Under the pieces are notes generated by a model. It saw only the letters and a program-made list of their open reading frames with translations. It searched no databases and was not told where the DNA came from. This document shows, piece after piece, positions 2,725-63,355 of a stretch of 64,000 bases of DNA (the first letter of the stretch is position 1; each line of letters begins with the position of its first letter). The DNA lies in contig CAYVCM010000001.1 of assembly GCA_964449925.1 (NCBI GenBank), positions 10,306-74,305 on the forward strand, in the 5' to 3' direction. A program made the translations under genes and the position numbers. This DNA comes from an uncultured Clostridium sp. (GTDB lineage: Bacteria; Bacillota; Clostridia; TANB77; CAG-508).

Positions 2725-2870
2725 AATTCTCCTTTCTTTAATATTTGGATTTTTTTAGGTTTTATATGTTTTATTTTGTTACTATTTCTTTTTTATAGTT
2801 TTACCAAATATTTATTTTTTTATTTATTATGTGTATATTATATCACAAAATTTTATTATTATTACATTTT

Positions 2871-3069
2871 TTTGTCGCATTGGGTGTCTCATTGGGGACG
2901 TTTCTTTTTGGGACATTTTTGAACGATAGGGACGGGTCAAATCGTTCAATTTTTGGGTATCTCATTGGAAATGTTTACTTTTGAGAAATTTTGAACGATT
3001 TGACCCGTCCCTATCGTTCAAAAATGTCCCAAAAAGAAACGTCCCCAATGAGACACCCAATGCGACAAA
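2871..3069. repeat. Family-1 intergenic palindromic repeat (~200-bp near-perfect palindrome, arms ~78 bp)
   Basis: Left arm TTTGTCGCATTGGGTGTCTCATTGGGGACGTTTCTTTTTGGGACATTTTTGAACGATAGGGACGGGTCAAATCGTTCAA. The right arm is its reverse complement, read directly. The centre is a degenerate GTATCTCATTGGAAATGTTTACTTTTGAGAAAT unit. GC content is well above the flanking DNA. Confidence 0.85.
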
Positions 3070-3116
3070 AAAAGTGCATCTGATGATACACCTTTTGATT
3101 TGACAAGATTTGCCTA

Positions 3117-3293
3117 TTAATATTTTCTTTTTCTTGCTGCCTCTGATTTTTTCTTTCTCTTTACACTAGGCTTTTCATAATGCTCTCTTTTTCTAACTTC
3201 TTGCAATACTCCATTTCTAGCACATTGTCTTTTAAATCTTTTTAGAGCATCTTCTATATTACCATTATTTACTTTTATTTCTAACAATTTCAT
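3117..3293 (-). CDS. rpsU: 30S ribosomal protein S21
   Basis: 58-aa ORF absent from the ORF track because it is under 60 aa. Translation: [58 protein letters not shown]. The hallmark [13 protein letters not shown] motif of S21 is present. A GGAGGGG RBS lies 6 nt upstream of the ATG. Confidence 0.9.
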
Positions 3294-4144: not shown

Positions 4145-4161
4145 TGAACTCTAGGTATTTC

Positions 4162-6060
4162 CTAAAGTTCACCAAAAATTGCTTCAAATTCATCTGAATT
4201 AATTTTTTCTTTTTCTAATAATATTCCTGCAACTTTGTGCAATTTATCTATATTATCTGACAATATTTTCTTTGCTCTATTATATCCAGTATCAACGATT
4301 TTCTTTGTTTCTTCATCAATAATTGCTGCTGTTTCTTCTGAATATTCTTTTGTATGTCCGAAATCTCTACCTAAGAAAACTTCATCTTGGCTAGATCCTA
4401 GCATTAAAGCACCAATTTTTTCACTCATACCATATTTTGTTACCATGCTTCTTGCTATTTGTGTTGCTCTTTCAATATCATTACTTGCACCTGTTGATAT
4501 ATCATTTAAGATAAGTGCTTCTGCTACTCTACCACCTAAAAGTGATACAATATTTTCTTCCATTTCTGTTTTTGACATGAAGTTTTTATCTTCTGTTGGT
4601 CTATACATAGTATATCCACCAGCCATACCTCTAGGTACAATTGATATTTCATGTACTGGGTCTTGTGTTTCTAAATAATGGCTAACAACTGCATGACCTG
4701 CTTCATGATATGCAACTAGTTTGTTTTCTTTTTCACTTCTTACTTTTGTTTTCTTTTCAGGTCCCATTGTTACTTTTACCATTGCATCTTCAATTTCTCT
4801 CATACCTATTTCATTCATATTTCTTCTAGCTGCTAATAAAGCTGCTTCATTTAATATGTTTTCTAGGTCTGCTCCTGCAAATCCTGATGTATTTTTTGCA
4901 ATTATTTTTAAGTCTACATCCTCTGCTAATCTTTTCTTTCTTGCGTGTACTTCTAATATTTGTTCTCTTGCCTTTACATCTGGCAATCCTACAACAATTT
5001 GTCTATCAAATCTTCCTGCTCTTAATAAAGCTTTATCTAATACATCTGGTCTGTTTGTAGCTGCTAGAACTATAACACCTTCATTAGTTGAAAATCCATC
5101 CATCTCAACTAATAATTGGTTTAATGTTTGTTCTCTTTCATCATGTCCTCCACCAAGACCTGCACCTCTTTGACGTCCTACTGCATCAATTTCATCTATA
5201 AATATGATACATGGTGCATTTTTCTTTGCTTGGTCAAATAAATCTCTTACTCTAGAAGCACCTACACCAACAAACATTTCTACAAAGTCTGAACCACTAA
5301 TTATAAAGAATGGTACTCCAGCTTCTCCTGCAACTGCTTTTGCAAGTAATGTTTTACCTGTTCCTGGTTGTCCAACTAATAATACACCTTTTGGTATTCT
5401 TGCACCCATATCTGTAAATTTCTTTGGATTTTTTAAGAATTGTACAATTTCTTCTAATTCTTCTTTTTCTTCATCTACACCTGCTACATCTTCAAATGTA
5501 ATTCTATTCTTTTCTGCTGGTGTCATCATTCTTGCTTTACTTTTTCCGAATGTCATTGTTTTATTTCCTGGGTTTCCACTACTAGCTCCTCCCATAGTTA
5601 AAAACCAAAATAGCATAAAGATGATTAATATGGCAAATGGTGTTATTAGTGGAATTAAAGCTACAAAAATAGATTCTTCTTCCTCTTCTAATGTGAAGTT
5701 TCCATTTGACATGAATTCTTCTACATATGTCATAAATGTTCCAATATCTGGTATTGTAACTTCTTTCCTTATACTGTCATCTTTTAATTCTACTTCAGCT
5801 GTTTGACCATCAGAACTTATAACAATTGAATTAACATTGTTGCTATTTATATTTGTAATTAACTCTGAATATGTTAATTTAGAGTTACTATTTTCTACAA
5901 TTGATGATAATACAACTAAAAAAATCACAATGATTATTAGCCACATAGCTAATGTTTTTATTCCGTTTTTCAAAATAATTCCTCCTCTTTGTACTTGATG
6001 TTTATTTAGATATGAACACATATCTTTTTGCACTCTATCACATTGTTTTTTCTTTTTCAA
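4162..6060 (-). CDS. ftsH: ATP-dependent zinc metalloprotease FtsH
   Basis: Walker A GQPGTGKT, the AAA second region of homology, and the zinc motif HEAGHA. An N-terminal transmembrane segment precedes the cytoplasmic domain. The true start is probably internal to the 632-aa ORF. Confidence 0.95.
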
Positions 6061-7253: not shown

Positions 7254-8588
7254 TTAGTCATCAAATCTTTTTTCTAAATTAACAAATTTAGTATAACTTC
7301 CTAGCCATAGCAATTCTACTGTTCCTAATGAACCACTTCTATGTTTTGCAATAATTACTTCTGCTATATTCTTTTTGTCACTATCTTTATTATAATAATC
7401 ATCTCTATATAAAAACATAACAATATCAGCATCTTGCTCAATTGCTCCAGATTCTCTTAAGTCTGAAAGCATTGGTCTATGGTCCATTCTTTGCTCTACT
7501 GCTCTTGATAATTGTGATAATGCAATAACTGGTACATCTAATTCTTTTGCTAGTATTTTTAGAGATCTACTAATTTCTGATATTTCTTGCTCACGGCTTC
7601 CATTTCTTCTGTTGCTACCTTGTACTAATTGTAAATAGTCAATAACTACCATACCAATATTCTTCTCTAATTTTAATTTTCTACATTTTGCTCTGATTTC
7701 CATAACAGATATTCCTGGTGTATCATCAATATATATCTCTGCTTCTGATAATGGTCCGATTGTTCCTGCTAATTTTGTCCAATCATCTTCTTCTAATTTT
7801 CCTGTTCTTATTTTATTATTATCAACCATGGCTTCACTACATAAAATTCTGTTTACCATTTGTTCTTTTGACATCTCTAAACTAAAAATTGCAACTGGTA
7901 CATTTGCTTGTACTGCTGCATTTGTCGCTATATTTAAAGCAAATGCAGATTTACCCATAGCTGGTCTTGCAGCAATTAAAACTAAATCTGACCCATGAAA
8001 TCCTGCTGTTTTATAGTCTAGCTCTGTAAAGCCTGATGGCACACCTGTTATATGTTGTTTTCTGTTATATAGTTCTTCTAATTGCGTAAAACTTTCAACT
8101 AAAACATCTTTTATTGCTGAATAACCTTTTTTATCATTGTTTTGCATGATGTTGAATATCTTTTTTTCTGCACCTTCCATGATGTCATCTACATCTTCTG
8201 TTGGGTCATACCCTAATTCAATTATTTCATTAGCTGTTTTTATTAGGTTTCTAAGTGTTGATTTTTCTTCTACAATTTTTACATATTTTACAGCATTTGC
8301 TGTTGTAGGTACTTTGTCTGGCAGACTTGCTAAATATTCTAATCCACCTACTTGTTCAAATTTTCCCAATGCTTCTAGTTCTGCTTTTACTGTAATAATA
8401 TCAATTGGTTCTGCACGATTATATAAGTTTAAAATTGCTTCATAAATAAATCTATTGTCTGTTCTATAAAAATCTTCTTCTTTTAAAACTTCTATTGCAG
8501 ATATTACTGCATCTCTATCTGTTAACATACTACCTAAAACTGCTTGCTCTGCTTCTACATCATGTGGTGGCACTTTTCCTAGTTCCAT
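7254..8588 (-). CDS. dnaB: Replicative DNA helicase DnaB
   Basis: 444 aa. Walker A AARPAMGKSAF and RecA-like helicase motifs. It lies downstream of rplI, as in the conserved gdpP-rplI-dnaB order. Confidence 0.95.
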   Translation of the reverse strand: MELGKVPPHDVEAEQAVLGSMLTDRDAVISAIEVLKEEDFYRTDNRFIYEAILNLYNRAEPIDIITVKAELEALGKFEQVGGLEYLASLPDKVPTTANAVKYVKIVEEKSTLRNLIKTANEIIELGYDPTEDVDDIMEGAEKKIFNIMQNNDKKGYSAIKDVLVESFTQLEELYNRKQHITGVPSGFTELDYKTAGFHGSDLVLIAARPAMGKSAFALNIATNAAVQANVPVAIFSLEMSKEQMVNRILCSEAMVDNNKIRTGKLEEDDWTKLAGTIGPLSEAEIYIDDTPGISVMEIRAKCRKLKLEKNIGMVVIDYLQLVQGSNRRNGSREQEISEISRSLKILAKELDVPVIALSQLSRAVEQRMDHRPMLSDLRESGAIEQDADIVMFLYRDDYYNKDSDKKNIAEVIIAKHRSGSLGTVELLWLGSYTKFVNLEKRFDD

Positions 8589-8701
8589 CTTTAACCTCCA
8601 CTATTATCTATTACTTATTTTATCTTATATATTATTTATTTTTATTTTTTATATTTATATTTGTCTTTTGTAATAGTTTAATTTTCTAATATACTAATTT
8701 G

Positions 8702-9148
8702 TTATTCTGAAATAACATCAATTTTTAGTTTTCCAATAACACCTTCAAATAATTTTATTTCAACATTGTGAACACCAAGTGCTTTGATAGTTTCTTTTAA
8801 ATCAATTTTCTTTTTGTCCACTTCGATATTGTATTGTTTTGATAATTCTTGTGCAATTTCTTTGCTAGATACACCACCAAATATTTTTCCGTTTTCTCCT
8901 GCTTTTACTTGTATTTTTAATAGTATTTTAGATAATTTATCTGCTGTTTTTATTGCTTCTTCTTTTTCTTGGTTTTTTTGGAATTTTGCAGAGTCTTGTT
9001 TTGCTTTTAGTTTCGCCATATTGGCTTTATTTGCTTCTACTGCTAGATTTTTAGGAAATAAAAAGTTTCTTGCATATCCGTCTGAAGCATTTATAATCTC
9101 ATCCTTTTTTCCAACCCCTTTTATGTCTGCTTTTAGTATTACTTTCAT
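8702..9148 (-). CDS. rplI: 50S ribosomal protein L9
   Basis: 148 aa. The N-terminus [36 protein letters not shown] is canonical for L9. Confidence 0.95.
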
Positions 9149-9218
9149 TGTAGCACCTTCCTTCGTCTTTTTATTCCATCATATTGTACTATATTTTTTC
9201 CTTTAAATCAAGTTCTTA

Positions 9219-9288
9219 TGTCTCATTGGGGACGTTTCTCTTTGAGACATTTGTGTCTCATTGGGGACGTTTCTCTTTGAGACATTTG
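9219..9288. repeat. Family-1 repeat, two tandem 35-bp hairpin units
   Basis: TGTCTCATTGGGGACGTTTCTCTTTGAGACATTTG occurs twice in tandem. Each unit has a GTCTCA/TGAGAC stem. Confidence 0.85.
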
Positions 9289-9652
9289 TGGACAATAGTG
9301 AGTAGCTTTTTATTGTATATTCCTGTTACAGTCCCTAAAAGCAACAAATTTTCTTTAACTTTCATTCTCTTTTGTGTATGATTAATAAAAATTAATCATA
9401 TCCTCTTTTTTTAATTTTGTAAACAAATTTAGAAATTATAATATTTTAAAATATTTTATCGCCTTTAATTTATAATAAATATACCACACTAATTTTAGAA
9501 ATACATTAATAAAAGCTTCCAGTTTGAAAACCAGAAGCTTTTACTTTACAAAAATACATTTTATTTCTTTTTTGTTAATTCAGGTCTTTTTGCAATTGCA
9601 TCATATAATCTATAAATTATACAGATGAATTTTGGCTTAATTTCAAATCCAT

Positions 9653-10260
9653 TAATACTCCAAACTGTTATCATCTAAAAGAAAATCATATATACTCATC
9701 AAAATAATACCATTATCATAACGAGATTTTGTTACATTTTCTCCTACTATTATCATCTTTTTAAAGAAATCATTTACATTTAATAAAGATTTTTGTTCCT
9801 GTTTTACTTTTTCTTCTGATTTCATCTCAAGTGCAGATTGAATATAGATTTTATTATTTCCTTTATTAACAACAAAATCTATTTCTAATTGTTTTTTGCT
9901 ATTTCATTCACGAACTTCAACAGAACCAACATCAACATTATATCCACGTTTTCTTAGCTCTATATATATAACATTTTCCATAGTATGAAAAATTTCTTCA
10001 CTTTGCCTAAAATCTAAAAATGAATTTCTAATTCCCATATCTGTAAAATAATATTTTTGAGGTGTTTCAATAAACTTTTTTCCTCTTACATCAAACCTTC
10101 TAGCTTTTTCTATCATAAAAGCATCTTGTAGATAATTTAAGTACTTATATATTGTTTTATCTGTCATAGTAGATGATTTATTATCTCTTTCTTTAAAATT
10201 ATTTGAAAGCTTAAGGGGATTTGTAAGACAGCCTATATCTGATGCTATTAGTGGATAAAC
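9653..10260 (-). pseudogene. Truncated AAA+ ATPase (DUF4143-type C-terminal region) carrying an in-frame TGA
   Basis: The translation GDEVRVYPL...KYYFTDMGIRNSFLDF...ENVIYIELRKRGYNVDVGSVEVRE*NSKKQLEIDFVVNKGNNKIYIQSA... matches the C-terminal DUF4143 module of AAA_14/DUF4143 ATPases. The N-terminal ATPase domain is absent. A single in-frame TGA at 9904-9906 interrupts the reading frame. Confidence 0.6.
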
Positions 10261-13620: not shown

Positions 13621-16600
13621 TTATTCCATATTTTCTGTGTCTGCAACTTGTTCTAATTCTTTTTCTGTATTAATATGAATACTTTGATATTTTTGCATAC
13701 CTGTTCCTGCTGGAATTAATTTACCAATGATAACATTTTCTTTTAATCCGATTAAGTCATCTACTTTACCTTTAACAGCTGCATCTGTAAGTACTCTTGT
13801 AGTCTCTTGGAATGATGCTGCTGATAAGAAACTATCTGTTGCAAGAGCAGCTTTTGTAATACCAAGTAATACTCTTTTTCCTGTTGCAGGTCTCTTGCCT
13901 TGTGCAACTGCTTCTGCATTTTTATCTTCGAATTCATACATATCAATTAATGAACCTGGGAACATATCTGTATCTGCATTGTCTTCAACTCTTACTTTTT
14001 TAAGCATTTGTCTACCAATAACTTCGATATGTTTATCATTAATGTCAACACCTTGATTTCTATATACTTTTTGCACTTCTGAAATCAAGTATTCGTATAC
14101 TCCTTCTGGTCCTTTTAATGTTAGAATTTCAGATGGGTTTATTGAACCTTCGATTAATGGTTCACCAACTTCTACCATGTCTCCATCTCTTACTTTCATT
14201 TTTGATCCAAATGGAATAGTATATGATTTTGAATTGTCTTTACTTGTAACAATTACTTCTTTCTTTTTCTTTGTTTCTTTAATTTTTACTTTACCTTCAA
14301 TTTCTGAAATGATTGCAAGTCCTTTTGGTTTTCTAGCTTCGAATAATTCTTCTACCCTTGGAAGACCTTGTGTAATATCTGCTACACCTGCTACACCTCC
14401 AGAGTGAATTGTTCTCATTGTAAGCTGTGTACCTGGTTCACCAATAGATTGTGCTGCTATAATACCAATAGCTTCACCAATAGATACTAAATCTCTTCTT
14501 GCTAATCCCATACCATAACATTTTTGGCACACACCATGTTTTGAATGACATCCAAGAACTGAACGCACTTGTAATTTTTCGATTCCAGCTGCTACGATTT
14601 CGTCTGCAATTTTTTCTGTAATCATTGTATTTGAGTCTACAATTAGCTCTTTTGTTTCTGGATTATATACATCTTCAACTGGGAATCTTCCTAGTAATCT
14701 TTCTTGCATTTTTTCAATAACTTGTTGTCCATCTTTAATGTCATATACAATAATTCCTTCACTTGTTCCACAATCATGTTCTCTTACTATAATGTCTTGT
14801 GATACATCAACTAATCTTCTTGTTAAGTATCCAGAGTCGGCTGTTCTTAATGCTGTATCTGAAAGTCCTTTTCTAGCACCATGGGCAGAAATGAAGTACT
14901 CTAATGCGTCTAATCCTTCTGCGAATGATGATTTGATTGGTATTTCTACTGCTTTACCTGTTGTACTTGCCATTAGTCCACGCATACCAGCAATTTGTCT
15001 TAATTGGCTCATATTTCCTCTGGCTCCAGATTTAACCATCATATATATTGGGTTTAATTCATCAAAGTTTTCTTCCATGGCATCACTAACTTTGTTAGTT
15101 GTATCTTCCCATACTTTGATAACTTCTGAGTAACGCTCTTCGTTTGTAATTAAACCTCTTGCAAATTGTTTTCTAATGTTTTCTATTTTTTCATCTGCTT
15201 CATTTAAGAAACCTTTTTTAGCTTCTGGAACTTGTACATCACTCATAGAGAATGTAATACCTGCTAATGTAGAATACTTGAATCCTAGAGCTTTAATATA
15301 ATCTATTACTTCTGCTGATTCTGTTAATCCATGTGTTCTGATTACTCTTTCAATTATATTTCCCATAGATTTTTTCATAACAGGGAAACTAATTTCATAT
15401 TGGAATGGATCTTCTTTTCTATCAATAAATCCTAAATCTTGTGGGATTCCTTGGTTAAAGATAATTCTTCCAACACTTGTTTCTACTTTCTTTGTTTTGA
15501 TTTCACCATCAATTTCTTTAGAAATTCTAACATGAATTTTTGCATGGATTCCTACTTCATGGTTTTCAAATGCCATTAGGGCTTCTTCTGGGTCTTTATA
15601 ATAAGTTCCTTCTCCTTTTTCTCCATCTAATACCATTGTTAAATAGTAGCTTCCTAAAATCATGTCTAGTCTTGGTACTGCAACTGGTTTACCATCTTGT
15701 GGTTTTAGTAAGTTGTTTGTTGAAAGCATTAAATATCTAGATTCTGCTTGTGCTTCTGGTGATAATGGTAAATGTACTGCCATTTGGTCACCGTCAAAGT
15801 CAGCATTGAATGCTTCACATACTAATGGGTGAAGTTTTATGGCTCTACCTTCTACTAATACTGGTTCAAAACTTTGAATTCCTAATCTATGTAGTGTAGG
15901 TGCACGGTTTAACATAACTGGGTGATCTTTTATAACTTCTTCTAATATTCCCCATACTTCTGGTTTTAATCTTTCTACCATTCTTTTTGCATTTTTGATG
16001 TTTTGTGCAATTCCTCTTCCAACTAATTCTCTCATAACAAATGGTTTAAATAATTCAACTGCCATTTCTTTTGGAAGTCCACATTGATAAATTTTAAGTT
16101 CTGGTCCTACTACAATAACAGAACGTCCTGAATAGTCAACACGCTTACCAAGTAAGTTTTGACGGAAACGACCTTGTTTTCCTTTTAATAAATCTGATAA
16201 AGATTTTAATGGTCTGTTTCCAGCACCTGTTACTGGTCTACCTCTTCTTCCATTGTCAATTAGGGCATCTACTGATTCTTGTAACATTCTTTTTTCATTT
16301 CTAACAATGATTTCTGGTGCTCCTAATTCTAATAGTCTTTTTAATCTGTTATTTCTGTTGATAACTCTTCTGTATAAGTCATTTAGGTCTGATGTTGCAA
16401 ATCTACCACCATCTAATTGAACCATAGGTCTTAAATCTGGTGGAATAACTGGGATTACATTCATAATCATCCATTCAGGTCTATTTCCTGAAAGTCTAAA
16501 TGCTTCTACTGTATCTAGTCTTTTTACAAGTTTGCTTTTCTTTTGCTCACTTGCTTTTTCTAGTTCTTTTCTAATTTGTAATGATAGTTTTTCAACATCA

Positions 16601-17148
16601 ATTTGCTCTAATAATTCTCTTAAAGCTTCTGCTCCCATTTTTGCTTTGAATGAACCTCTACCATATTTTTCTTCTGCTTCATGATATTCTTTTTCATTTA
16701 AAACTTGGCATTTTTCTAAATCTGTTGTTCCTTTGTCAATTACTACATAAGAAGCAAAATATATGATTCTTTCTAGGTTTCTTGGTGAAATGTCAAGTAA
16801 TAATGCAATTCTACTTGGTATACCTTTAAAATACCATATATGTGCTACTGGTGCAGCTAATTCGATATGCCCCATTCTTTCTCTTCTGACTTTTGATTTT
16901 GTTACTTCAACACCACATCTGTCACATACTATTCCTTTATATCTAACCCTTTTATATTTACCACAGTGACATTCCCAGTCTTTTGTTGGACCAAATATTC
17001 TTTCACAGAAAAGTCCATCTTTTTCTGGTTTTAGTGTTCTGTAATTAATTGTTTCTGGTTTTTTTACTTCCCCTTTTGACCATTCTCTGATTTTTTCGTC
17101 TGATGCGATTCCAATTTTTAGTTTATCAAAAATATCTAATTCGTCCAC
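13621..17148 (-). CDS. rpoC: DNA-directed RNA polymerase subunit beta-prime
   Basis: Canonical motifs [57 protein letters not shown] and [12 protein letters not shown]. The ORF is open back to 17220, but the conserved N-terminus and a GGGGGA RBS point to a GTG start at 17148. Confidence 0.96.
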
Positions 17149-17245
17149 TTTATTTCCCCCTAAATAAGTTTTTTTAGGTAATTCTAAAACAGTTAAGAGG
17201 TCTGGCCACTGCTGGTGCAATTCCTTTCTGTCGCCTCTTTCCTTT

Positions 17246-17269
17246 TTAGAATTTATTCAATTAATTTTT
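17246..17269. repeat. 24-bp direct repeat, copy A, flanking the rpoB-rpoC insertion
   Basis: TTAGAATTTATTCAATTAATTTTT is identical to 17825-17848. Confidence 0.85.
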
Positions 17270-17752
17270 CAAACTGTTATAAAAACTTTTTCTGTATTCT
17301 TCTATTTTCTCATAGCTTACAATTCCAATTTTAAAAATTATTTGTTCGTTTTGTATTTTATAAATAACATCTGTTTTTACTATACTATCTCTATTTAGAT
17401 TATTTGATTCATCTTTTTCTAATAATTTATTAGTTTTAAACTTTAGTTTATTTAGATTAGATGATACAAGCATACCAAAATTTTCTATTGGAACAGCAGT
17501 ATTATCTTGATCTATTATTACAAAAAAATGATTACTACCTATTTTACCATCAGGATAACTATACTCTCTAACAAAAACAATATCTCCAATTTCATAAGGA
17601 TTATATGATTCATTATTCTCTTTTAGCACATTTTCAATTTTTCCTTTGTGCCATTCTTCCTCAACTGGATATTCTTCAAAAGCATCTTTTAAGTCTTTTA
17701 CTCTTCCATATTCATAAGCGGTTTTTAAAAAATCACTTAATTCTTTTTCCAT
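17261..17752 (-). CDS. Hypothetical protein inserted between rpoB and rpoC, with weak PemK/MazF-like toxin-fold similarity
   Basis: 163-aa ORF with an AAAGGAG RBS 11 nt upstream of the ATG. The segment IGDIVFVREYSYPDGKIGSNHFFVIID resembles the GD-[IV]-x-x-[VA]-x-F...G.E..K.RP.V[VI] N-terminal strand pattern of PemK/MazF/CcdB-fold proteins. There is an extra 50-aa N-terminal extension. Confidence 0.55.
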   Translation of the reverse strand: MEKELSDFLKTAYEYGRVKDLKDAFEEYPVEEEWHKGKIENVLKENNESYNPYEIGDIVFVREYSYPDGKIGSNHFFVIIDQDNTAVPIENFGMLVSSNLNKLKFKTNKLLEKDESNNLNRDSIVKTDVIYKIQNEQIIFKIGIVSYEKIEEYRKSFYNSLKN

Positions 17753-17824: not shown

Positions 17825-17848
17825 TTAGAATTTATTCAATTAATTTTT
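17825..17848. repeat. 24-bp direct repeat, copy B, abutting the rpoB stop codon
   Basis: TTAGAATTTATTCAATTAATTTTT is identical to 17246-17269. Confidence 0.85.
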
Positions 17849-20800
17849 TATATAATATCATTATCAAAATTATCTTCTGCTAAATCACCATCCAAAAGCA
17901 TGTCATCCTCTTCGTCATCTAAGCTTTCAAATAGTTCATCATTGCCATCGTCTAACATATCATCTTCTTCAATTTCTTCTGTATATCCATCTTCTAAATC
18001 TCCATCTTCGACAACAACTTCTTCCTCTTCGTGTTCATATTTTTTGTCTTTTTCTGGATCGTATTCGATGCCTTCTTCTATATTTTCTTTTAGTTCTAGT
18101 TCTTGATTATCTTCAGAGAATAAACGAACATCTAATCCTAAAGATTGTAATTCTTTTACTAGTACTTTAAAGCTTTCTGGAACACCTGGTTCTGGAACAT
18201 TTTCACCTTTTACGATTGCTTCATATGTTTTTACTCTTCCTACTACATCGTCAGATTTAACTGTTAACATTTCTTGTAGTGTATATGATGCACCATATGC
18301 CTCTAATGCCCAAACTTCCATTTCTCCAAAACGTTGTCCACCAAATTGTGCTTTTCCACCTAAAGGTTGTTGTGTTACTAGTGAGTATGGTCCTGTTGAA
18401 CGAGCATGGATTTTGTCGTCTACTAAGTGATGTAGTTTTAACATGTACATAACACCAACTGTAATTGGGCTTGCAAATGGTTCTCCTGTTCTACCATCAT
18501 ATAGTGTTGTTTTTCCATCTTTGTTCATTCCCGCTTCTGCTAATAATTGTTCAACATCTTCTTGTGTTGCACCATCAAATACTGGTGTAGATACATGCCA
18601 TCCTAATGCTTTTGCTGCTCCTCCTAAGTGAACTTCTAGCACTTGTCCTAAGTTCATACGAGATGGAACTCCAAGAGGGTTTAGTAAGATATCAATTGGT
18701 GTACCGTCTGGCATAAATGGCATATCTTCTTCTGGTAATACTCTTGAAATAACACCTTTGTTACCATGTCTACCTGCCATTTTATCTCCGACTGATATTT
18801 TTCTTTTTGTTGCAATATAACATCTAATAATTTGATTAACACCAGGTCCTAATTCATCAGAGTTTTCTCTTGTAAATATTTTAACATCTACAATTGTTCC
18901 TGCTTCTCCATGAGGTACTCTTAGTGAAGTGTCTCTAACTTCTCTTGCTTTTTCTCCAAAGATGGCTCTTAATAGTCTTTCTTCAGCAGTTAATTCTGTT
19001 TCTCCTTTTGGTGTTACTTTTCCAACTAGAATGTCTCCTGGTCTAACTTCTGCACCAATACGGATAATTCCGTTTTCATCTAAGTCTTTTAGTGAGTCAT
19101 CTCCAATGTTTGGAATGTCTCTTGTTATTTCTTCTGCTCCTAGTTTTGTGTCTCTACATTCACAATCATATTCTTCTATATGAATAGATGTAAATACATC
19201 TTCTTTTACTAATCTTTCATTTAAAAGAATCGCGTCTTCGTAGTTGTAACCTTCCCATGTTGAGAATGCAACTAATACATTTTTACCTAAAGCCATTTCT
19301 CCATCTTTAGTTGATGGCCCATCTGCAATGGCATCACCTTTTTTAACTTTTTCACCTTTTTTTACAATTGGTTTTTGATTAATACATGTTCCACCATTTG
19401 TTCTTTTAAATTTGCGTAATTTATGTACAACTGTTTTTCCATTATTATATTTAACTGTAATGCTATCTCCTGTTACTTTTTCAATAACACCATCATCTTC
19501 TGCTAATACTAAAATTCCAGAGTCTTTTGCTGCTCTATATTCAATTCCTGTTCCAACAATTGGACTTTCTGTAATCATTAGAGGTACTGCTTGTCGTTGC
19601 ATGTTTGCACCCATTAGAGCTCTTTTTGCATCATCATGCTCTAAGAATGGAATCATTGCTGCAGCAATTGAAACTAATTGTTTTGGTGAAACATCAACAT
19701 ATTGCACATTATCTTTGTCAACTTCAATTACTTCGTTTTTGTATCTAACTCTAATTCTTGGATTTACAAAACTTCCATCTTTATTAATTGGTTCTGAACT
19801 TTGAGCAATAATATAGTTGTCTTCTACATCTGCACTCATATATTCTACAGTGTCTGTTAATTTATGTGTTTCTGGATCTACTTTTCTGTATGGTGTTTCT
19901 ATAAATCCATATTCATTAATTTGTGCAAATGATGATAAAGCTGAAATTAGTCCTATGTTTGGTCCTTCTGGTGATTCTATTGGACATAGTCTACCATAAT
20001 GTGTATAGTGAATATCACGAACCTCAAAACCTGCTCTATCTCTTGTTAATCCTCCAGGTCCTAATGCAGAAATTCTTCTTTTATGTGTTAATTCTGAAAG
20101 TGGGTTTGTTTGGTCCATAAATTGTGATAATTGTGAACTTCCGAAAAATTCTCTAATTGCTGATGTTATTGGTTTTGTATTAATTAAAGTTTGTGGTGTT
20201 ATTACATCTAAATCTTGGATTGTCATTCTTTCACGAACAACTCTTTCTAATCTAGTTAAACCAATTCTAAATTGATTTTGTAATAATTCTCCAACACAAC
20301 GAATTCTACGGTTTGCTAAGTGGTCAATATCATCTGGTTCTCCTAGTCCATGTGATAAGTTTAATAGATAATTAATAGAAGCTATCATGTCTTCAGTTGT
20401 AATATGTTTTGGTACTAATTCATTTTGTCTTTCTTCTATTATTTTTACTAATTCTTTTTTATCTGTGTTATCTATAATGTCTTTTAATACTTGATAATTT
20501 ACCATTTCTTTAAAGTGTAATTTACTTAAATTTACATCTGGTAATACTTTATGAATGTTAACTGTACCATTTCCAATAATTCTAACTGTTCTTTCTCCTA
20601 CTGTTACATCTACAATGTTAATTCCAGAATTTTGGATGTTTTCTGCTATTTCTTCTGTTATAACTTCTCCTGCTTGTACAAATACTTCTCCTGTTTCATC
20701 ATCTACAACATCTTTAGCTGATACTTTTCCTTTAATTCTTCCTGCTAATGATAATTTTTGATTAAATTTGTATCTACCAACTTTTGCTAAATCATATCTT

Positions 20801-21600
20801 CTGTTATCATAAAATAATCCATTAAATAAATTTTTAGCAGCATCTGCTGTTGGAAGTTCTCCTGGTCTTAATTTTTTATAAATTTCAATTAATGCTTCAT
20901 CTTGATCTTTGATAGTATCTTTATTTAATGTTGCTTTTATTAATTCTTCATCACCAAATAGTTCTAACATTTGTGCATCTGTTGCTACACCGATTGCTCT
21001 TATTAATGTAGTTATTGGCACTTTTCTTGTTCTGTCTACACGAACCCAGAAAATGTCGTTTCCATCTGTTTCATATTCTAGCCATGCACCACGAAGTGGC
21101 ATAACTGTTGATGTATATGTTTTCTTTCCTGTTTTTGTGTCAAATTCTTCATCATAATAACATCCTGGTGAACGAACTAATTGGCTAACTACAACTCTTT
21201 CTGCACCGTTAATAATAAATGTACCACTATCTGTCATTAATGGGAAATCGCCTAAGTAGATTTCTTGTTCTTTGATTTCTCCTGTTTCACGGTTAATTAG
21301 CCTTACTTTTACATGTAATCTTGTAGAGTATGTTGCATCTCTTTCTTTTGCTTCTTCTACTGTGTATTTTGTTTTGTCTTCCATGTAGTAGTCGAAAAAT
21401 TCTAGTACAAGATTTCCTGAATAGTCTTCTATTGGAGAAATGTCTTTTAGTACTTCTCCTAATCCTTCTTCTACAAACCATTCGTAAGAGTCTCTTTGTA
21501 CTTTAATTAAGTTTGGCATTTCGATATAGTCGCCAACTTTTGCGAAATCTTTACGAGAAGTTTTCTCGTATTTCACTTCTTTTAACTTCAAGAAAATCAC
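17848..21600 (-). CDS. rpoB: DNA-directed RNA polymerase subunit beta, with an ~85-aa acidic C-terminal extension
   Basis: 1250 aa with canonical rpoB blocks, for example [15 protein letters not shown] and the rifampicin-cluster region [18 protein letters not shown]. The C-terminus is [53 protein letters not shown]. Confidence 0.97.
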
Positions 21601-26064: not shown

Positions 26065-26100
26065 ATTTTCTTTCCTTTCTTTTTCTTTTATATAGCATTA

Positions 26101-26262
26101 GGTGTCGCATTGGGGACGTTTCTCTTTGAGACATTTTTATGTAAAATTGCAAAATGCTATTTTACATTTGTATATAATATTTTAATTTTATATTTTAGTA
26201 TATTAGAAATAGGAATTTTAATTTTACATAAAAATGTCTCAAAGAGAAACGTCCCCAATGCG
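26101..26262. repeat. Family-1 palindromic repeat with a ~100-bp AT-rich core containing its own inverted repeat
   Basis: The arms are GGTGTCGCATTGGGGACGTTTCTCTTTGAGACATTTTTATGTAAAAT and ATTTTACATAAAAATGTCTCAAAGAGAAACGTCCCCAATGCGACAC. Confidence 0.85.
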
Positions 26263-26314
26263 ACACAATGCTATATAAAAGAAAATGCCTCCTAATGGAG
26301 ACATCTCTCTATTT

Positions 26315-27525: not shown

Positions 27526-27655
27526 ATGGTAGCTAGTGTAGAGGTATATGTGCTATGAACATCATTCTAAAATTATTAACAAATTCTAAAAATATTTCCA
27601 ATCACATTCGTCATCTATTCAATTTAAAATAATGTCCCTTCACACTATCTACCAT
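27526..27655. repeat. Degenerate short relative (~130 bp) of the 30236-30485 MITE-like element
   Basis: Imperfect terminal inverted repeats ATGGTAGCTAGTGTAGAGGTATAT and GTCCCTTCACACTATCTACCAT. The internal sequence TTTCCAATCACATTCGTCATCTATTCAAT is the reverse complement of 30289-30317 with one mismatch. Confidence 0.6.
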
Positions 27656-27777: not shown

Positions 27778-28341
27778 ATGATCATTTTTATTATTTTATT
27801 TATTATAATTGCTGTCATTATAGCAGTAATAGCTATGTATAATGGTTTAGTTCAATCTAAAATAAAAGTTGATAATGCATGGAGTCAAATAGATGTACAA
27901 TTACAAAGAAGATTTGACCTTATACCTAATTTTGTTGAAACTGTAAAAGGTTACATGACACATGAATCTGAAACATTTGAAAAAATTGCACAACTAAGAA
28001 CCTCATGGGCACAAGCAGAAAGTGTTTCTAAAAAAGCTGAATTAGATAATCAACTATCTACTGCTTTAAAAACTATAATGGCAGTGTCTGAAAGCTATCC
28101 TGATTTAAAAGCAAACCAAAACTTCTCAGATTTGTCAGAAGAACTTAGAAATACAGAAAATAAAATTTCTTTTTCTAGACAATTCTATAATGATACTGTA
28201 ACAACATATAACACAAAATTAGAAGTTTTCCCATCTAACATTATTGCTGGTATGTTTCATTTTACACCTCGTGACTTATTCGTTGCTGAAAATGAAGAAG
28301 CCAGAAAAAATGTAAAAGTAGATTTTGGAAAAAATCAATAG
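27778..28341 (+). CDS. lemA: LemA family protein
   Basis: 187 aa. N-terminal TM helix, then the conserved LemA core (NGLV...AWSQIDVQLQRRFDLIPN). Confidence 0.85.
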   Translation: MIIFIILFIIIAVIIAVIAMYNGLVQSKIKVDNAWSQIDVQLQRRFDLIPNFVETVKGYMTHESETFEKIAQLRTSWAQAESVSKKAELDNQLSTALKTIMAVSESYPDLKANQNFSDLSEELRNTENKISFSRQFYNDTVTTYNTKLEVFPSNIIAGMFHFTPRDLFVAENEEARKNVKVDFGKNQ

Positions 28342-28431
28342 CAATCATCTTAATATATAATTTTAATAAATATTGTTTAGAAGGGATAGGGGATTACCTT
28401 TTCCCTTCTTTACTTTTAAAGGGAGTAGAAT

Positions 28432-29328
28432 ATGTTTGAAACAAGTAAAAAAAATAAATTTGAGTCAGGTATTATAATAGGAATTTTTATTTTAGTCATT
28501 ACTTTAATTGTATATTTTGTTTGTAATGCACTAAGATTAGGCCCAATATCCATTATGATTGCATTAGTTGTTTCAATTGCATCTGCATGGGCTTCTTACT
28601 ACTATAGTGACAAAATTGTATTATCATTGAACAAAGCAAGACCAGCTACTAAAGAAGAAGACCAAAAACTAGTTAATATTTTAGATGCTCTTATGGTAAC
28701 AGCTGGGCTACCAAATAAACCTAGACTTTATGTTGTAGAAGATGCACAACCAAATGCATTTGCTACTGGGAGAAATCCCGAAAATTCTGTTATTTGTGTA
28801 ACAACAGGACTTTTAGAAAAATTAGATTATTATGAGTTAGAGGGTGTTATTGCTCATGAAATGAGTCATATTAAAAACTATGATATTCGTTTAAGTTGTG
28901 TTGTTTCTGTTATGGTTGGTTTTATTGTAATGGTATCTGATGTATTTTCTCGTGCTTTATTTTGGGGTGGTTCACGCGATAGAGATAATGATAACAGAGC
29001 AAATGGATTATTAATGTTAATAGGACTTGTTCTTTTAATTTTAGCACCTATTTTTGGTTCTTTAATGCAACTTGCTTTATCTAGAAAAAGAGAATTTTTA
29101 GCAGATAGTACTGCTGTTGAGTTTACTCGTAATCCAGATGGTTTGATTTCTGCTTTGGAGAAATTAGAAAATGACCCTAATGAATTGAAAACTGCAAATA
29201 ATGCAACTGAAAATATGTATATTGTTAATCCATTTAAGAAGAATGGCAAGAAAAAAACTAGTAGCCTTTGGTCTACACATCCTAGTACAGCAGATAGAAT
29301 CGAAGCTTTGAGAAATTTAAAATTTTAA
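28432..29328 (+). CDS. htpX: M48 family zinc metalloprotease HtpX homolog
   Basis: 298 aa with four TM helices and the HEMSH (HExxH) motif. LemA-M48 gene pairs are common. Confidence 0.85.
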   Translation: MFETSKKNKFESGIIIGIFILVITLIVYFVCNALRLGPISIMIALVVSIASAWASYYYSDKIVLSLNKARPATKEEDQKLVNILDALMVTAGLPNKPRLYVVEDAQPNAFATGRNPENSVICVTTGLLEKLDYYELEGVIAHEMSHIKNYDIRLSCVVSVMVGFIVMVSDVFSRALFWGGSRDRDNDNRANGLLMLIGLVLLILAPIFGSLMQLALSRKREFLADSTAVEFTRNPDGLISALEKLENDPNELKTANNATENMYIVNPFKKNGKKKTSSLWSTHPSTADRIEALRNLKF

Positions 29329-29344: not shown

Positions 29345-29390
29345 AAAAAAGTTCACAAAACTTATTTAAATCAGTTTTGTGAACTTTTTG
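29345..29390. terminator. Bidirectional terminator between htpX (+) and tatD (-)
   Basis: AAAAAAGTTCACAAAAC, loop TTATTTAAATCA, GTTTTGTGAACTTTTTG. It overlaps the last codons of tatD. Confidence 0.7.
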
Positions 29391-30177
29391 TTACAAGTAT
29401 TTTTTCAGCATTATTGTAAGTTATTTTTGCAACATCTTCTAGTGGCAAGCCCTTCACATCAGCAATTTTTTGTGCAATATGTTTTACATTTCTCGGATCA
29501 TTTCTAGTTCCCCTTACTGGTTCTGGTGCTAAATAAGGACTATCTGTTTCTATAAGCATTTTATCTACTGGTACCATTTCTATAATTTCATTTGCATTTT
29601 TTGAATTTTTGAAAGTTACTGGCCCTGCAAACGAAATATAAAATCCAAGCTTTAATGCCTCTTTTACCAATTCTCTATTTAATGGACAACAATGAAAAAT
29701 ACCTTTTTTGCTAACCGTATGTGTTTTTAATATTTCTAATGTATCCATAATAGCATCTCTTGTATGTATAACAATTGGTAAATTAAAATCATTTGCCATT
29801 TCGATTTGTTTTACAAAAGCATTTTTTTGTAATTCTCTTCTTTCTAAATTTTTTTCCCAATAATAGTCTAATCCAATTTCTCCAATTGCTACAATTTTTT
29901 TATCTTTTATATTATTTTTCACTAATTCGTTTATAGTTTCTATATCTTTCCACAATTCTTCTTCAATTTGTGGAATATCATTTGGAGAAATTCCACAGGT
30001 GGTATAAATATAGTCATATTTTTTTGATAATTCAACACCTTTAATAGAACCTTCTACACTATATCCTGCTGATACTATTTTTGTTATATCCGCTTTTTTT
30101 ATTTCTGCTATTAAATTTTCTCTATCTTCATTAAATTTTTCGTCATCTAAATGACAATGACTATCAAAAAATTCCAT
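29371..30177 (-). CDS. tatD: TatD family metal-dependent deoxyribonuclease/hydrolase
   Basis: 268 aa. The N-terminus FDSHCHLD is the TatD signature, followed by the conserved His and Asp ligands of the family. Confidence 0.9.
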   Translation of the reverse strand: MEFFDSHCHLDDEKFNEDRENLIAEIKKADITKIVSAGYSVEGSIKGVELSKKYDYIYTTCGISPNDIPQIEEELWKDIETINELVKNNIKDKKIVAIGEIGLDYYWEKNLERRELQKNAFVKQIEMANDFNLPIVIHTRDAIMDTLEILKTHTVSKKGIFHCCPLNRELVKEALKLGFYISFAGPVTFKNSKNANEIIEMVPVDKMLIETDSPYLAPEPVRGTRNDPRNVKHIAQKIADVKGLPLEDVAKITYNNAEKILVTKSSQN

Positions 30178-30235: not shown

Positions 30236-30485
30236 GGTTACTATTCAGAGTTATATGGTAACAAGGTGTGGAGGTATATTATTTTAAATTGAATAAATGA
30301 CGAATGTGATTGGAAAATGATTAGAACATCTTAAATTTTTTTATGGAAAATGTTCGCGCTTGACGTGAAAGGGTGCCATAAAAAAATTTTAGAGGTTCTT
30401 AAAATTTGTATTGAGCCGAGGAATTTATGAAATTTAAAATAATATACCTCCACACCTTGTTACCATATAACTCTGAATAGTAACC
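30236..30485. mobile_element. MITE-like non-autonomous element, 250 bp with 50-bp perfect terminal inverted repeats
   Basis: The left TIR GGTTACTATTCAGAGTTATATGGTAACAAGGTGTGGAGGTATATTATTTT is the exact reverse complement of the right TIR (30436-30485). The ~150-bp core has no ORF. The element fills most of the acpS-tatD intergenic gap. Confidence 0.5.
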
Positions 30486-30879: not shown

Positions 30880-31040
30880 CCTTTTTCCTTTTTAATTTAC
30901 TATATGACTTTAGAACAAATCGGAAAGCCTTAAAAATCATTCTAATTTTATTTTATCGCTTTGGCTTTCCGTAAATTTGCGTGCAATTGCTGGAGCAAAG
31001 CGACTTTCATATAATGGTAATATTTGATAAATTATTTCAA

Positions 31041-31196
31041 GCGATGATTTGAGGACGGAGCAAAAAATCATCATTTGTATAAATAAATTTTTATATAATT
31101 TTTATAATACAAATGATGATTTTTTGCTCCGTCCTCAAATCATCGCTTGCTTCGTCCCCAAAATGTCTCAAAAAGAAACGTCCCCAATGAGACATA
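31041..31196. repeat. Composite Family-1 repeat: a 40-bp perfect IR module plus a GGGGACG hairpin unit
   Basis: GCGATGATTTGAGGACGGAGCAAAAAATCATCATTTGTAT, then a 28-nt loop, then ATACAAATGATGATTTTTTGCTCCGTCCTCAAATCATCGC. This is followed by CGTCCCCAAAATGTCTCAAAAAGAAACGTCCCCAATGAGACAT. Confidence 0.85.
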
Positions 31197-60130: not shown

Positions 60131-61893
<1,763 letters not shown>

Positions 61894-63194: not shown

Positions 63195-63197
63195 TTT

Positions 63198-63324
63198 TTG
63201 TCTCATTGGGGATGTTTCTTTTTGAGACATTTTGGGGACGGTGATGATTTGGGGACAGAGCAAGTGATGATTTTTTGCTCCGTCCCCAAAATGTCTCAAA
63301 AAGAAACATCCCCAATGAGACAAA
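63198..63324. repeat. Family-1 palindromic repeat between the convergent mecA and M23-peptidase genes
   Basis: TGTCTCATTGGGGATGTTTCTTTTTGAGACATTTTGGGGACGG ... GATGATTTTTTGCTCCGTCCCCAAAATGTCTCAAAAAGAAACATCCCCAATGAGACA. It shares the GATGATTTTTTGCTCCGTCC module with 31041-31196. Confidence 0.85.
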
Positions 63325-63355
63325 ACGAAGATTCATTTAAGAATCCTCGTCTTTT

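Follow-up and report, generated by a model that had tools for sequence, protein, structure and literature searches.

Six hairpin-repeat loci in the window

The stretch analyzed here (the window) comprises 64,000 nucleotides from an uncultured Clostridium sp. (Bacteria; Bacillota; Clostridia; TANB77; CAG-508; GenBank assembly GCA_964449925.1, contig CAYVCM010000001.1, positions 10,306 to 74,305 of the forward strand). It has a GC content of 28.8%, carries its genes almost all on the minus strand, and contains six repeat loci, designated E1 to E6, which are composed of three hairpin modules, designated M1, M2, and M3. The family is real: it is dispersed and intergenic, has hairpin potential, and recurs in 18 related genomes, and its units also stand, in inverted orientation, on either side of a transposase gene in relatives. 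The modules have a common plan, a stem of 7 to 8 bp with (G)GGACG in the loop, and are given below as stem, loop, and stem.

M1 (31-nt unit TGTCTCATTGGGGACGTTTCTYTTTGAGACA): TGTCTCA / TTGGGGACGTTTCTYTT / TGAGACA
M2: GATGATTT / GAGGACGGAGCAAA / AAATCATC
M3: GAACGAT / AGGGACGGGTCAA / ATCGTTC

The six loci and their gene contexts are as follows.

E1, 2867-3073: composite REPIN-like palindrome with 88-nt arms, 98% complementary (repeat finder), in the order truncated outer arm GTCGCATTGGG 2873-2883, M1(+) 2885-2915, M3(+) 2921-2947, degenerate M1 2958-2988, M3(-) 2993-3019, M1(-) 3025-3055, mirrored outer arm; 44 nt after the rpsU stop (3117)
E2, 9219-9284 (+): two identical M1 hairpins in direct tandem (9219-9249 and 9254-9284), not palindromic; 71 nt upstream of the rplI start (9148), thus upstream of a gene and not after one
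E3, 26081-26285: inverted M1 doublet, M1(+) 26103-26133 and M1(-) 26235-26265, with an AT-rich center 26149-26219; between a G5/3D-domain gene and an Exo_endo_phos gene
E4, 31038-31196: M2 palindrome 31038-31149 (M2(+) 31043-31072 and M2(-) 31115-31144; arms 31038-31093 and 31094-31149, 56 nt, 91%), then a GGGGACG box 31153-31159 (-), then a single M1(-) 31164-31194; 4 nt after the stop (31200) of a 413-aa open reading frame (ORF)
E5, 45682-45797: decayed M3 doublet, 45686-45712 (+) and 45767-45793 (-), with 56-nt arms, 91%, and without M1; 8 nt after the stop of a 1323-aa SpaA-domain gene
E6, 63196-63325: inverted M1 doublet, M1(+) 63199-63229 and M1(-) 63292-63322, with 46-nt arms, 100%; between the convergent genes mecA (stop 63194) and M23 peptidase (stop ~63351)

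With up to three mismatches allowed, nine matches to M1 were found in the 64 kb (starts 2885+, 3025-, 9219+, 9254+, 26103+, 26235-, 31164-, 63199+, and 63292-), against 0 expected and none in 100 shuffles; the degenerate M1 in the middle of E1 was recognized by a Hamming scan as a tenth, and the density of M1 is about one unit per 6 kb. Exact M2 and exact M3 are each restricted to the two arms of one palindrome, at 31 kb (31043+ and 31115-) and at 2.9 kb (2921+ and 2993-), respectively, with 0 expected in both cases, and the same scan found M2 copies at 63 kb with 4 to 7 mismatches and M3 copies at 45.7 kb with 5 to 6 mismatches, which are degenerate yet symmetric. The heptamer GGGGACG occurs 10 times in the window (0.12 expected), and all 10 occurrences lie within the six loci. 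None of the three modules ends in a GTAG tag; the conserved element is instead the GGGGACG in the loop. Folded as single-stranded DNA (ssDNA), the module hairpins are more stable than their shuffles (z = -2.2 to -4.5; dG = -4.7 and z = -3.8 for M1), and the entire E1 folded as RNA reaches -158 kcal/mol (z = -27).

The arms of the three inverted M1 doublets (E1, E3, and E6) are 98 to 100% complementary. The palindrome of E3 proper, 26102-26266, has 47-nt arms that match at 100% and stretches to about 26081-26285 with a 2-nt indel, and its outer arms carry a truncated GCATT(A)GG; the same architecture (M1, TTTTTATGTwAA, and an AT-rich stretch) was found at another locus of a different genome (locus L015, 6164-6317). 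The interior of E6 contains GGGGACG boxes at 63234-63240 (+) and 63281-63287 (-) and M2-like units at 63243-63272 (+) and 63266-63295 (-). In all four loci that have two M1 units, the two units are identical within the locus, whereas M1 differs between loci at one to three positions: E1 has ...TTGGGACA, E3 has TGTCGCA..., and both arms of E6 bear the private variant GGGGATG. Therefore, the pairs arise or are kept as symmetric units. Truncated 5' arms of the form GTCnCATT(GG) stand immediately before full units in E1, in E3, and in several related loci, and direct reading of the sequence revealed no direct repeats or target-site duplications flanking E1, E3, or E6.

A preliminary description of the window had reported six copies built from shared modules, with M2 at 31 and 63 kb and M3 at 2.9 and 45.7 kb, and all of them exist at or near the places given, the shared modules in the copies at 63 and 45.7 kb being degenerate. 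Its statement that each copy is a long palindrome applies to the copies at 2.9, 26, 45.7, and 63 kb but not to the copy at 9.2 kb, which is a direct M1 tandem of about 70 nt, and only in part to the copy at 31 kb, which is palindromic in its M2 portion and has one single M1 added. The raised GC content it described was found in five of the six loci (32 to 42%) but not in the copy at 26 kb, which has 26.7%, below the mean of the window, because of its AT-rich center. The placement between genes, mostly 3' of them, was confirmed: all six loci are intergenic, and five of the six lie 1 to 49 nt past a stop codon.

Recurrence in related genomes and turnover between strains

A search with an exact 20-mer of M1 retrieved 58 stretches from 18 species-level metagenome-assembled genomes (MAGs) of uncultured low-GC Clostridia, which are labeled as uncultured Clostridia, Clostridium, Bacillota, or Eubacteriales. 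Together these stretches contain 94 M1 cores in 411 kb (retrieved loci and contigs are referred to below by L-numbers). The MAG closest to the window shows only 79 to 86% DNA identity, and the species of the window is therefore not among the 18. Neither of the two outcomes that the preliminary description had set against a dispersed family, copies found only in the window or modules absent elsewhere, holds, since the modules recur in the 18 MAGs. Three other origins of the repeats were rejected: the M1 and M3 patterns have no matches in viral contigs, which speaks against a phage origin; the units are irregularly spaced and lack the unique spacers of a CRISPR array; and the flanks of the six loci are unrelated to each other, which excludes a local duplication.

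In most of these genomes, the full unit consists of M1 followed by a small second hairpin, TTTGTCCAyTTTGGGACACATC, and a second subtype ends in ...TCATGCGACAT. Single units are the commonest form (56 of 85 distinct M1 units). Inverted M1 doublets were also found in L014, L015, L027, L030, L035, L043, and L055. The M2-type units of L015 form palindromic doublets of their own, M3 adjoins M1 in L012 and L031, and a fourth hairpin, AGGGATTxGGGGACGGAGCTxAAAATCCCT, combines the loop of M2 with a different stem. Separately, it was observed that M3 in L012 (1439-1465), compared with the two M3 units of E1 in the window (2921-2947 and 2993-3019), has kept its stem while its loop is inverted relative to the neighboring M1, a flip-flop-like arrangement.

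Pairing in the 7-bp stem of M1 was examined in 80 distinct units, which have a mean of 6.24 Watson-Crick pairs, compared with 5.73 +/- 0.06 after shuffling of the 3' arms between units. The variable position 5 of the stem is occupied by T-A in 36 units, G-C in 12, C-G in 8, and T.G in 7, and by a mismatch in 17. Insertion boundaries were sought at orthologous sites: L050 (79% identity) and L024 (86%) carry M1 where the window does not, but no exact empty site was obtained from them because the intergenic DNA is too diverged to align.

A closer comparison was provided by L151, a contig of 604 nt that encodes the S21 protein of the window and differs from it by 2 mismatches in about 470 nt of flank, thus representing a near-identical strain. 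The window and L151 share the junction ...CACTTTTTTTGTCGCATTGGG| (also written ...TTTTTTTGTCGCATTGGG|). Past this junction, the window has M1-M3-M1'-M3-M1, whereas L151 has an M2 doublet with an AT-rich center followed by M1(-), and the breakpoint between the two lies exactly at the truncated 5' arm. The composite of L151 is of the type of E4 at 31 kb, so that this type occurs at two different loci. Since the module content differs between near-identical strains, the turnover is recent. A second contig of the organism of the window, L059, was retrieved via L9 and is 100% identical to window positions 7779-9248; it stops inside the first unit of E2. L9 and S21 yielded only these short contigs, and exact look-ups of three other proteins of the window (the 322-aa protein, ACPS, and MecA) returned no record. 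The organism of the window is present in SRR7039260 and ERZ25039390. Both contigs, L059 (at window position 9248) and L151, end inside M1, which indicates that the assembly breaks at the repeat.

A Y1 transposase gene between inverted M1 units in relatives

In L007, an ORF of 256 aa is bracketed by M1 at 3101-3131 (+) and M1 at 4155-4185 (-). Homologues of this ORF are present in L039, L028, and L018, each beside M1 units, and in all four loci the gene is flanked by M1 units in inverted orientation. The ORF matches the Pfam family Y1_Tnp above the gathering threshold (E = 3e-15), and its best NCBIfam model is that of the REP-associated tyrosine transposase (RAYT), with 63.7 bits, compared with 22 bits for the IS200 model. 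The transposase gene is single-copy and occupies one syntenic locus in relatives, with the constant order MreB, radical SAM, small ORF, transposase, radA, and disA; the same order was found in relatives fetched via the protein sequence at 55 to 68% protein identity, and a paralogous type, P0050, lies in another context. No tnpB stands next to the transposase gene, and among the 150 fetched loci no DDE gene is bounded by the units, the only bounded gene being that of the HUH/Y1 enzyme. The databases hold at least 924 homologues of about 256 aa, many of whose genes lie alone on contigs of about 1 kb, as would be expected of a gene situated between repeats. The Y1-type partner gene that the preliminary description had proposed to look for is thus found in relatives, flanked by M1, but not within the window, and we infer that the genome of the window encodes the transposase elsewhere.

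In the alignment, the HUH motif (N59-H60-x-H62), Y119-x3-N123-P124, and W137-S138-S139 are invariant, and the catalytic HUH and Tyr residues are conserved in 35 of 35 homologues. A profile search of the PDB sequences returned only 4ER8, the E. coli TnpA-REP (E = 0.014). The AlphaFold (AF2) model (pLDDT 91.8) has its best structural match in the same entry, TnpA-REP with a REP hairpin (Foldseek E = 5e-7, TM 0.70, root-mean-square deviation 2.7 A over 145 columns), followed by the IS200, IS608, and ISDra2 transposases. By BLASTP, the protein is 28 to 38% identical (E = 1e-26 to 1e-35) to published TIRYTs, whose sequences were taken from Additional file 5 of Di Nocera et al. 2013 (PMC3733652) and which include one from a member of the Clostridia, Desulforudis audaxviator; its identity to the E. 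coli RAYT is 21% (E = 0.01). The C-terminal 110 residues form a helical extension in the predicted structure, in which weak Pfam matches to helix-turn-helix (HTH) families were obtained (HTH_23 in 3 of 35 members, E = 0.02; Sigma70_r4_2 in 3 of 35); for this part, a profile search of the PDB gave no sequence hit and in particular no DnaA. From these sequence relationships, the protein is assigned as a Y1 transposase of the "TIRYT" branch of the RAYTs.

All transposase genes examined are preceded, at a distance of about 60 to 100 nt and within the stretch bounded by the flanking repeats, by a conserved palindrome, AAAAAGTATAGCAa...TGCTATACTTTTTATG (L007 3215-3270; also L018, L028, L060, L064, and L069), which may be an operator or the terminator of the upstream ORF.

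The repeats on the flanks vary together with the enzyme. Genes of the L007 type have M1 and the second hairpin on their flanks, and genes of the L028 type (57% identical) have the GCGACAT / ...TCATGCGACAT subtype. In L064, the loop is kept with a new stem, TGTCCA/TGGACA, whereas in L067 the stem is kept with a changed loop, and tandem doublets stand on both sides. A flank of L060 carries ATGGGGACAGTCCCCAT, and one of L069 ends in GGGGACACATC. Compared with the GGGGWSAS motif that has been reported in TIRYT flanks (PMC3733652), GGGGACAG of L060 and GGGGACAC of L069 fit exactly and GGGGACGT of M1 fits at 6 of 8 positions.

A metagenome scan with the protein alignment added 80 loci of relatives with 34 to 62% identity. 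Flanking inverted repeats were present in 42 of the 61 loci that had enough flank (34 to 46% identity), and GGGAC/GGGGWSAS was found in 40 of these 42. In a pooled set of 75 loci, an inward-reading GGGAC occurs in 114 of 144 flanks, and in 67% of the 114 the motif lies inside a perfect stem of at least 5 bp, a share that falls to 14% in flank-shuffled controls. The sequences of the stems bear no relation to one another (GTGTGTCAA/TTGACACAC, AACACAAA/TTTGTGTT, AGCAGG/CCTGCT, and CAAACA/TGTTTG), and the loop is rGGGGACGkTTC.... Because the plan of a stem with GGGAC extends across distant relatives of the enzyme, M1, M2, and M3 are local versions of a branch-wide plan. We tentatively propose, at slightly less than even probability, that a variable stem of 5 to 13 bp with the loop rGGGGACGkTTC is the general and hitherto unrecognized equivalent of a REP for the whole TIRYT/Group 1 (subclass 2.1) branch. 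If so, this large branch would read a loop box instead of a GTAG tag and could also maintain REPIN-like populations of a modular kind, in the present case in a Gram-positive lineage of the gut that shows signs of continuing turnover between strains.

Interpretation and comparison with known systems

We suggest that the six loci are probably non-autonomous hairpin repeats of the REP/REPIN type and represent, more specifically, "TIR repeats" that are dispersed in the genome and belong to a TIRYT, a Group-1-like RAYT. Modules are found alone, in tandem, or in inverted pairs, the last of which fold into long hairpins. An HUH/Y1 enzyme, encoded by a single-copy chromosomal gene elsewhere in the genome, would bind the hairpin and the GGGGACG box on ssDNA and cleave close to where the 5' arm meets the loop. 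It would then rejoin the strand at another site, preferably beside or inside existing copies, giving rise to mosaics and truncated 5' arms. The lack of target-site duplications is as expected for Y1 enzymes. Because five of the six loci sit just after stops, the elements may additionally influence the 3' ends of transcripts. Both the mobilization of the repeats by the enzyme and the position of cleavage are points that we infer by analogy with TnpA of IS200/IS605 (IS608) and TnpA-REP of E. coli, the biochemistry of which is established (PMC8266576).

Several observations weigh against this interpretation. The published assays cover only RAYT Groups 2 and 3 and not Group 1, subclass 2.1, or the TIRYTs (PMC8266576), and the NCBIfam score of 63.7 bits is below the equivalog cut-off of 80. 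The 64-kb window contains no Y1 transposase gene; it does contain an MreB homologue (60131-60913), which does not stand in the MreB-...-radA gene order. About 21% of the M1 units are mismatched at the variable stem position. The orientation of single units relative to the local GC skew is unbiased (30 vs 26, p = 0.69, n = 56), and owing to this lack of bias the lagging-strand signature of IS200/IS605-type transposition is not seen. The module swap between strains could equally be explained by recombination between dispersed copies.

The last two of these observations are in agreement with another explanation, which we consider unlikely, namely that the enzyme is a domesticated DNA-binding or DNA-processing protein with the hairpins as its genomic binding sites and a possible role in replication, repair, or chromosome structuring, and that most of the spread and reshuffling of the repeats is due to homologous recombination, gene conversion, or template switching between copies and not to cut-and-paste by a transposase. 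The gene is single-copy and syntenic, conserved down to 55% identity, and fixed beside radA-disA, and in the REPIN literature Group 1 RAYTs are regarded as co-opted and as lacking REPINs; moreover, the identical units at each paired locus fit concerted evolution, and conversion between copies would leave the outer junction and one M1 common to both strains, which is what is seen at the rpsU site. However, recombination alone cannot put identical 31-nt units in unrelated intergenic sites of 18 species, the invariance of HUH and Tyr in the 35 homologues argues for a retained cleavage activity, and the truncated 5' arms that abut full units resemble footprints of cleavage or insertion. It could also be supposed that the elements are functional RNA or DNA structures selected at gene ends, such as terminators, 3'-end stabilizers, or protein sites, with an incidental link to the transposase. 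Five of the six loci do lie 1 to 49 nt after stops, the hairpins are very stable, and a consensus terminator scan returned three terminator-like sites in E1; in E5, the center (45724-45755), a GC hairpin with A/T runs, looks by eye like a bidirectional terminator. The same scan, however, returned no such sites in E5 and E6, E2 lies upstream of a gene, and the window has no Rfam match at gathering thresholds. A permissive Rfam scan of E1 yielded only sub-threshold microRNA-precursor-like matches, which any long hairpin gives, and the search for tRNA and tmRNA found none. Judged by position, a terminator role is possible, but selection at gene ends alone would leave unexplained the near-identity of the 31-nt unit across loci and species, the flanking of the transposase in every relative examined, and the module swap between strains, so that we regard this explanation as quite improbable.

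The least credible explanation in our view, to which we give hardly any weight, is that of miniature inverted-repeat transposable elements (MITEs) derived from a conventional DDE insertion sequence, similar to Correia, RUP, or BOX elements. Although the elements are short, intergenic, and mosaic and have terminal inverted repeats, E1, E3, and E6 lack target-site duplications, the 150 fetched loci contain no DDE transposase with such ends, the HUH/Y1 gene being the only one bounded, and most of the distinct M1 units (56 of 85) are single, each corresponding to just one "end". For the same reason, namely that no target duplications flank the elements, the likeness to RUP and Correia elements, which are DDE-mobilized MITEs with target-site duplications, that had been drawn in the preliminary description is not supported. 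Its other proposal, a dispersed modular family of the REP/BIME type, was borne out by the recurrence in 18 MAGs and by the Y1 gene flanked by the units in relatives.

The window contains several further features. Beside the M1 tandem of E2, short ORFs at 9652-10167 (-) encode fragments of a DUF4143 ATPase (PF13635, E = 2e-10) and are probably a decayed gene in a long non-coding stretch. A second, unrelated set of palindromes has its arms at 27479-27549/27632-27702 and 30236-30298/30423-30485; a 39-nt segment is common to both in inverted orientation (27595-27633 vs 30278-30316, 97%), and the two bracket a 2.5-kb segment with a GC skew near zero. This segment has two genes on the plus strand (27778-29328), in a window otherwise coded on the minus strand, and one on the minus strand (29371-30177). 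The set of palindromes contains no GGGGACG box, was not found in the fetched loci, and may represent the ends of an inserted or invertible segment. An ORF of 163 aa at 17261-17752 (-) sits between rpoB (17848-21600) and rpoC (13621-17220), an unusual interruption of rpoBC; its product has a domain similar to that of PemK/MazF toxins (PF02452, E = 3e-5, slightly better than the gathering threshold). Three consecutive genes for giant surface proteins of 2915, 1323, and 1642 aa, with internal repeats common to all, occupy 36729-54726 (-), and Pfam found SpaA, SdrD_B, DUF11, and CarboxypepD_reg in the first two of these proteins (2915 and 1323 aa).

The foremost case of bacterial mobile DNA that is long-lived and inherited vertically is that of the REP/REPIN-RAYT systems, which have been studied almost only in Proteobacteria and in Groups 2 and 3. 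Here, a TIRYT-type enzyme of low-GC Clostridia is tied to an abundant modular hairpin family, with GGGGACG in the loop as the candidate recognition element, and the GGGGACG hairpin offers a concrete substrate for a first biochemical test of the TIRYT branch. The repeats are also of practical consequence, as they break short-read assemblies of these gut MAGs.

According to previous research, inverted repeats on the flanks of TIRYT genes can give rise to repeat families (Di Nocera, De Gregorio & Rocco 2013, PMC3733652). The TIR repeats of such TIRYT/TIRtron systems are moderately abundant and "organized as REPs in dimers or clusters", and only some TIRs are partly or wholly self-complementary (PMC3733652). 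Most TIRYTs belong to TnpA-Y1 subclass 2.1 (Quentin 2018, PMC6006769), which equals RAYT Group 1 (Bertels 2017, PMC5581495); the placement of the reference TIRYTs in Group 1/subclass 2.1 rests here on the statements of those papers. A systematic survey found no REP-like sequences beside subclass 2.1 genes (Quentin 2018, PMC6006769), and only RAYT Groups 2 and 3 have been said to have REPINs (bioRxiv 10.1101/2021.07.10.451892). Judged from the sequences compared here, the plan of a hairpin with a loop box would go beyond both of these statements; it is in part covered by what was observed in 2013, namely GGGGWSAS and some self-complementary TIRs. The preliminary description had held that no such family is described for this kind of genome; none was found for Clostridia in the papers searched, but the kind itself is known, as repeats derived from TIRYT flanks (PMC3733652).

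With IS200/IS605 elements and their miniature derivatives (PATEs), the system described here shares the HUH/Y1 fold, subterminal hairpins of the kind recognized on ssDNA, and the lack of a target-site duplication. It differs from them in that the transposase is single-copy and syntenic and not multi-copy, that tnpB is absent, that the protein scores only 22 bits with the IS200 model but 64 with the REP-associated one, and that no strand bias was detected. The resemblance to the Proteobacterial REP/BIME/REPIN-RAYT systems of Groups 2 and 3 lies in the repeats themselves, which are short extragenic palindromes located after genes and form inverted doublets (REPINs) and BIME-like mosaics. It extends to the single-copy, vertically inherited Y1 transposase flanked by units (here in relatives), with 4ER8 as the best structure match. 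Unlike in those systems, a 5' GTAG tag is missing and the loop box GGGGACG is conserved rather than tag and stem, and the protein is only about 21% identical to the E. coli RAYT.

The closest described system is TIRYT/TIRtron with its TIR repeat families. The protein, besides being 28 to 38% identical to TIRYTs, has their signature (MPR..., RGN, YCLMxNHVHL, GHLxQxRF, Y-x3-NP, and WSS) and is longer than the classical RAYTs, with a helical C-terminal extension; the gene lies between inverted repeats with a GGGGWSAS-like box (exact in L060 and L069, 6 of 8 in M1), and copies of the flanking repeat lie scattered through the genome, singly, in dimers, and in clusters. The similarity to DnaA_C/HTH reported for the C terminus of subclass 2.1.2 was not confirmed here. 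The differences from the described TIRYTs lie in the host, an uncultured lineage of Clostridia with about 28% GC; in the repeats, which consistently fold on themselves into hairpins and carry the box in the loop; and in the number of interchangeable hairpin modules, at least three or four of which build the mosaics. With these differences, the family of the window fits the TIRYT/TIRtron system, in uncultured low-GC Clostridia.

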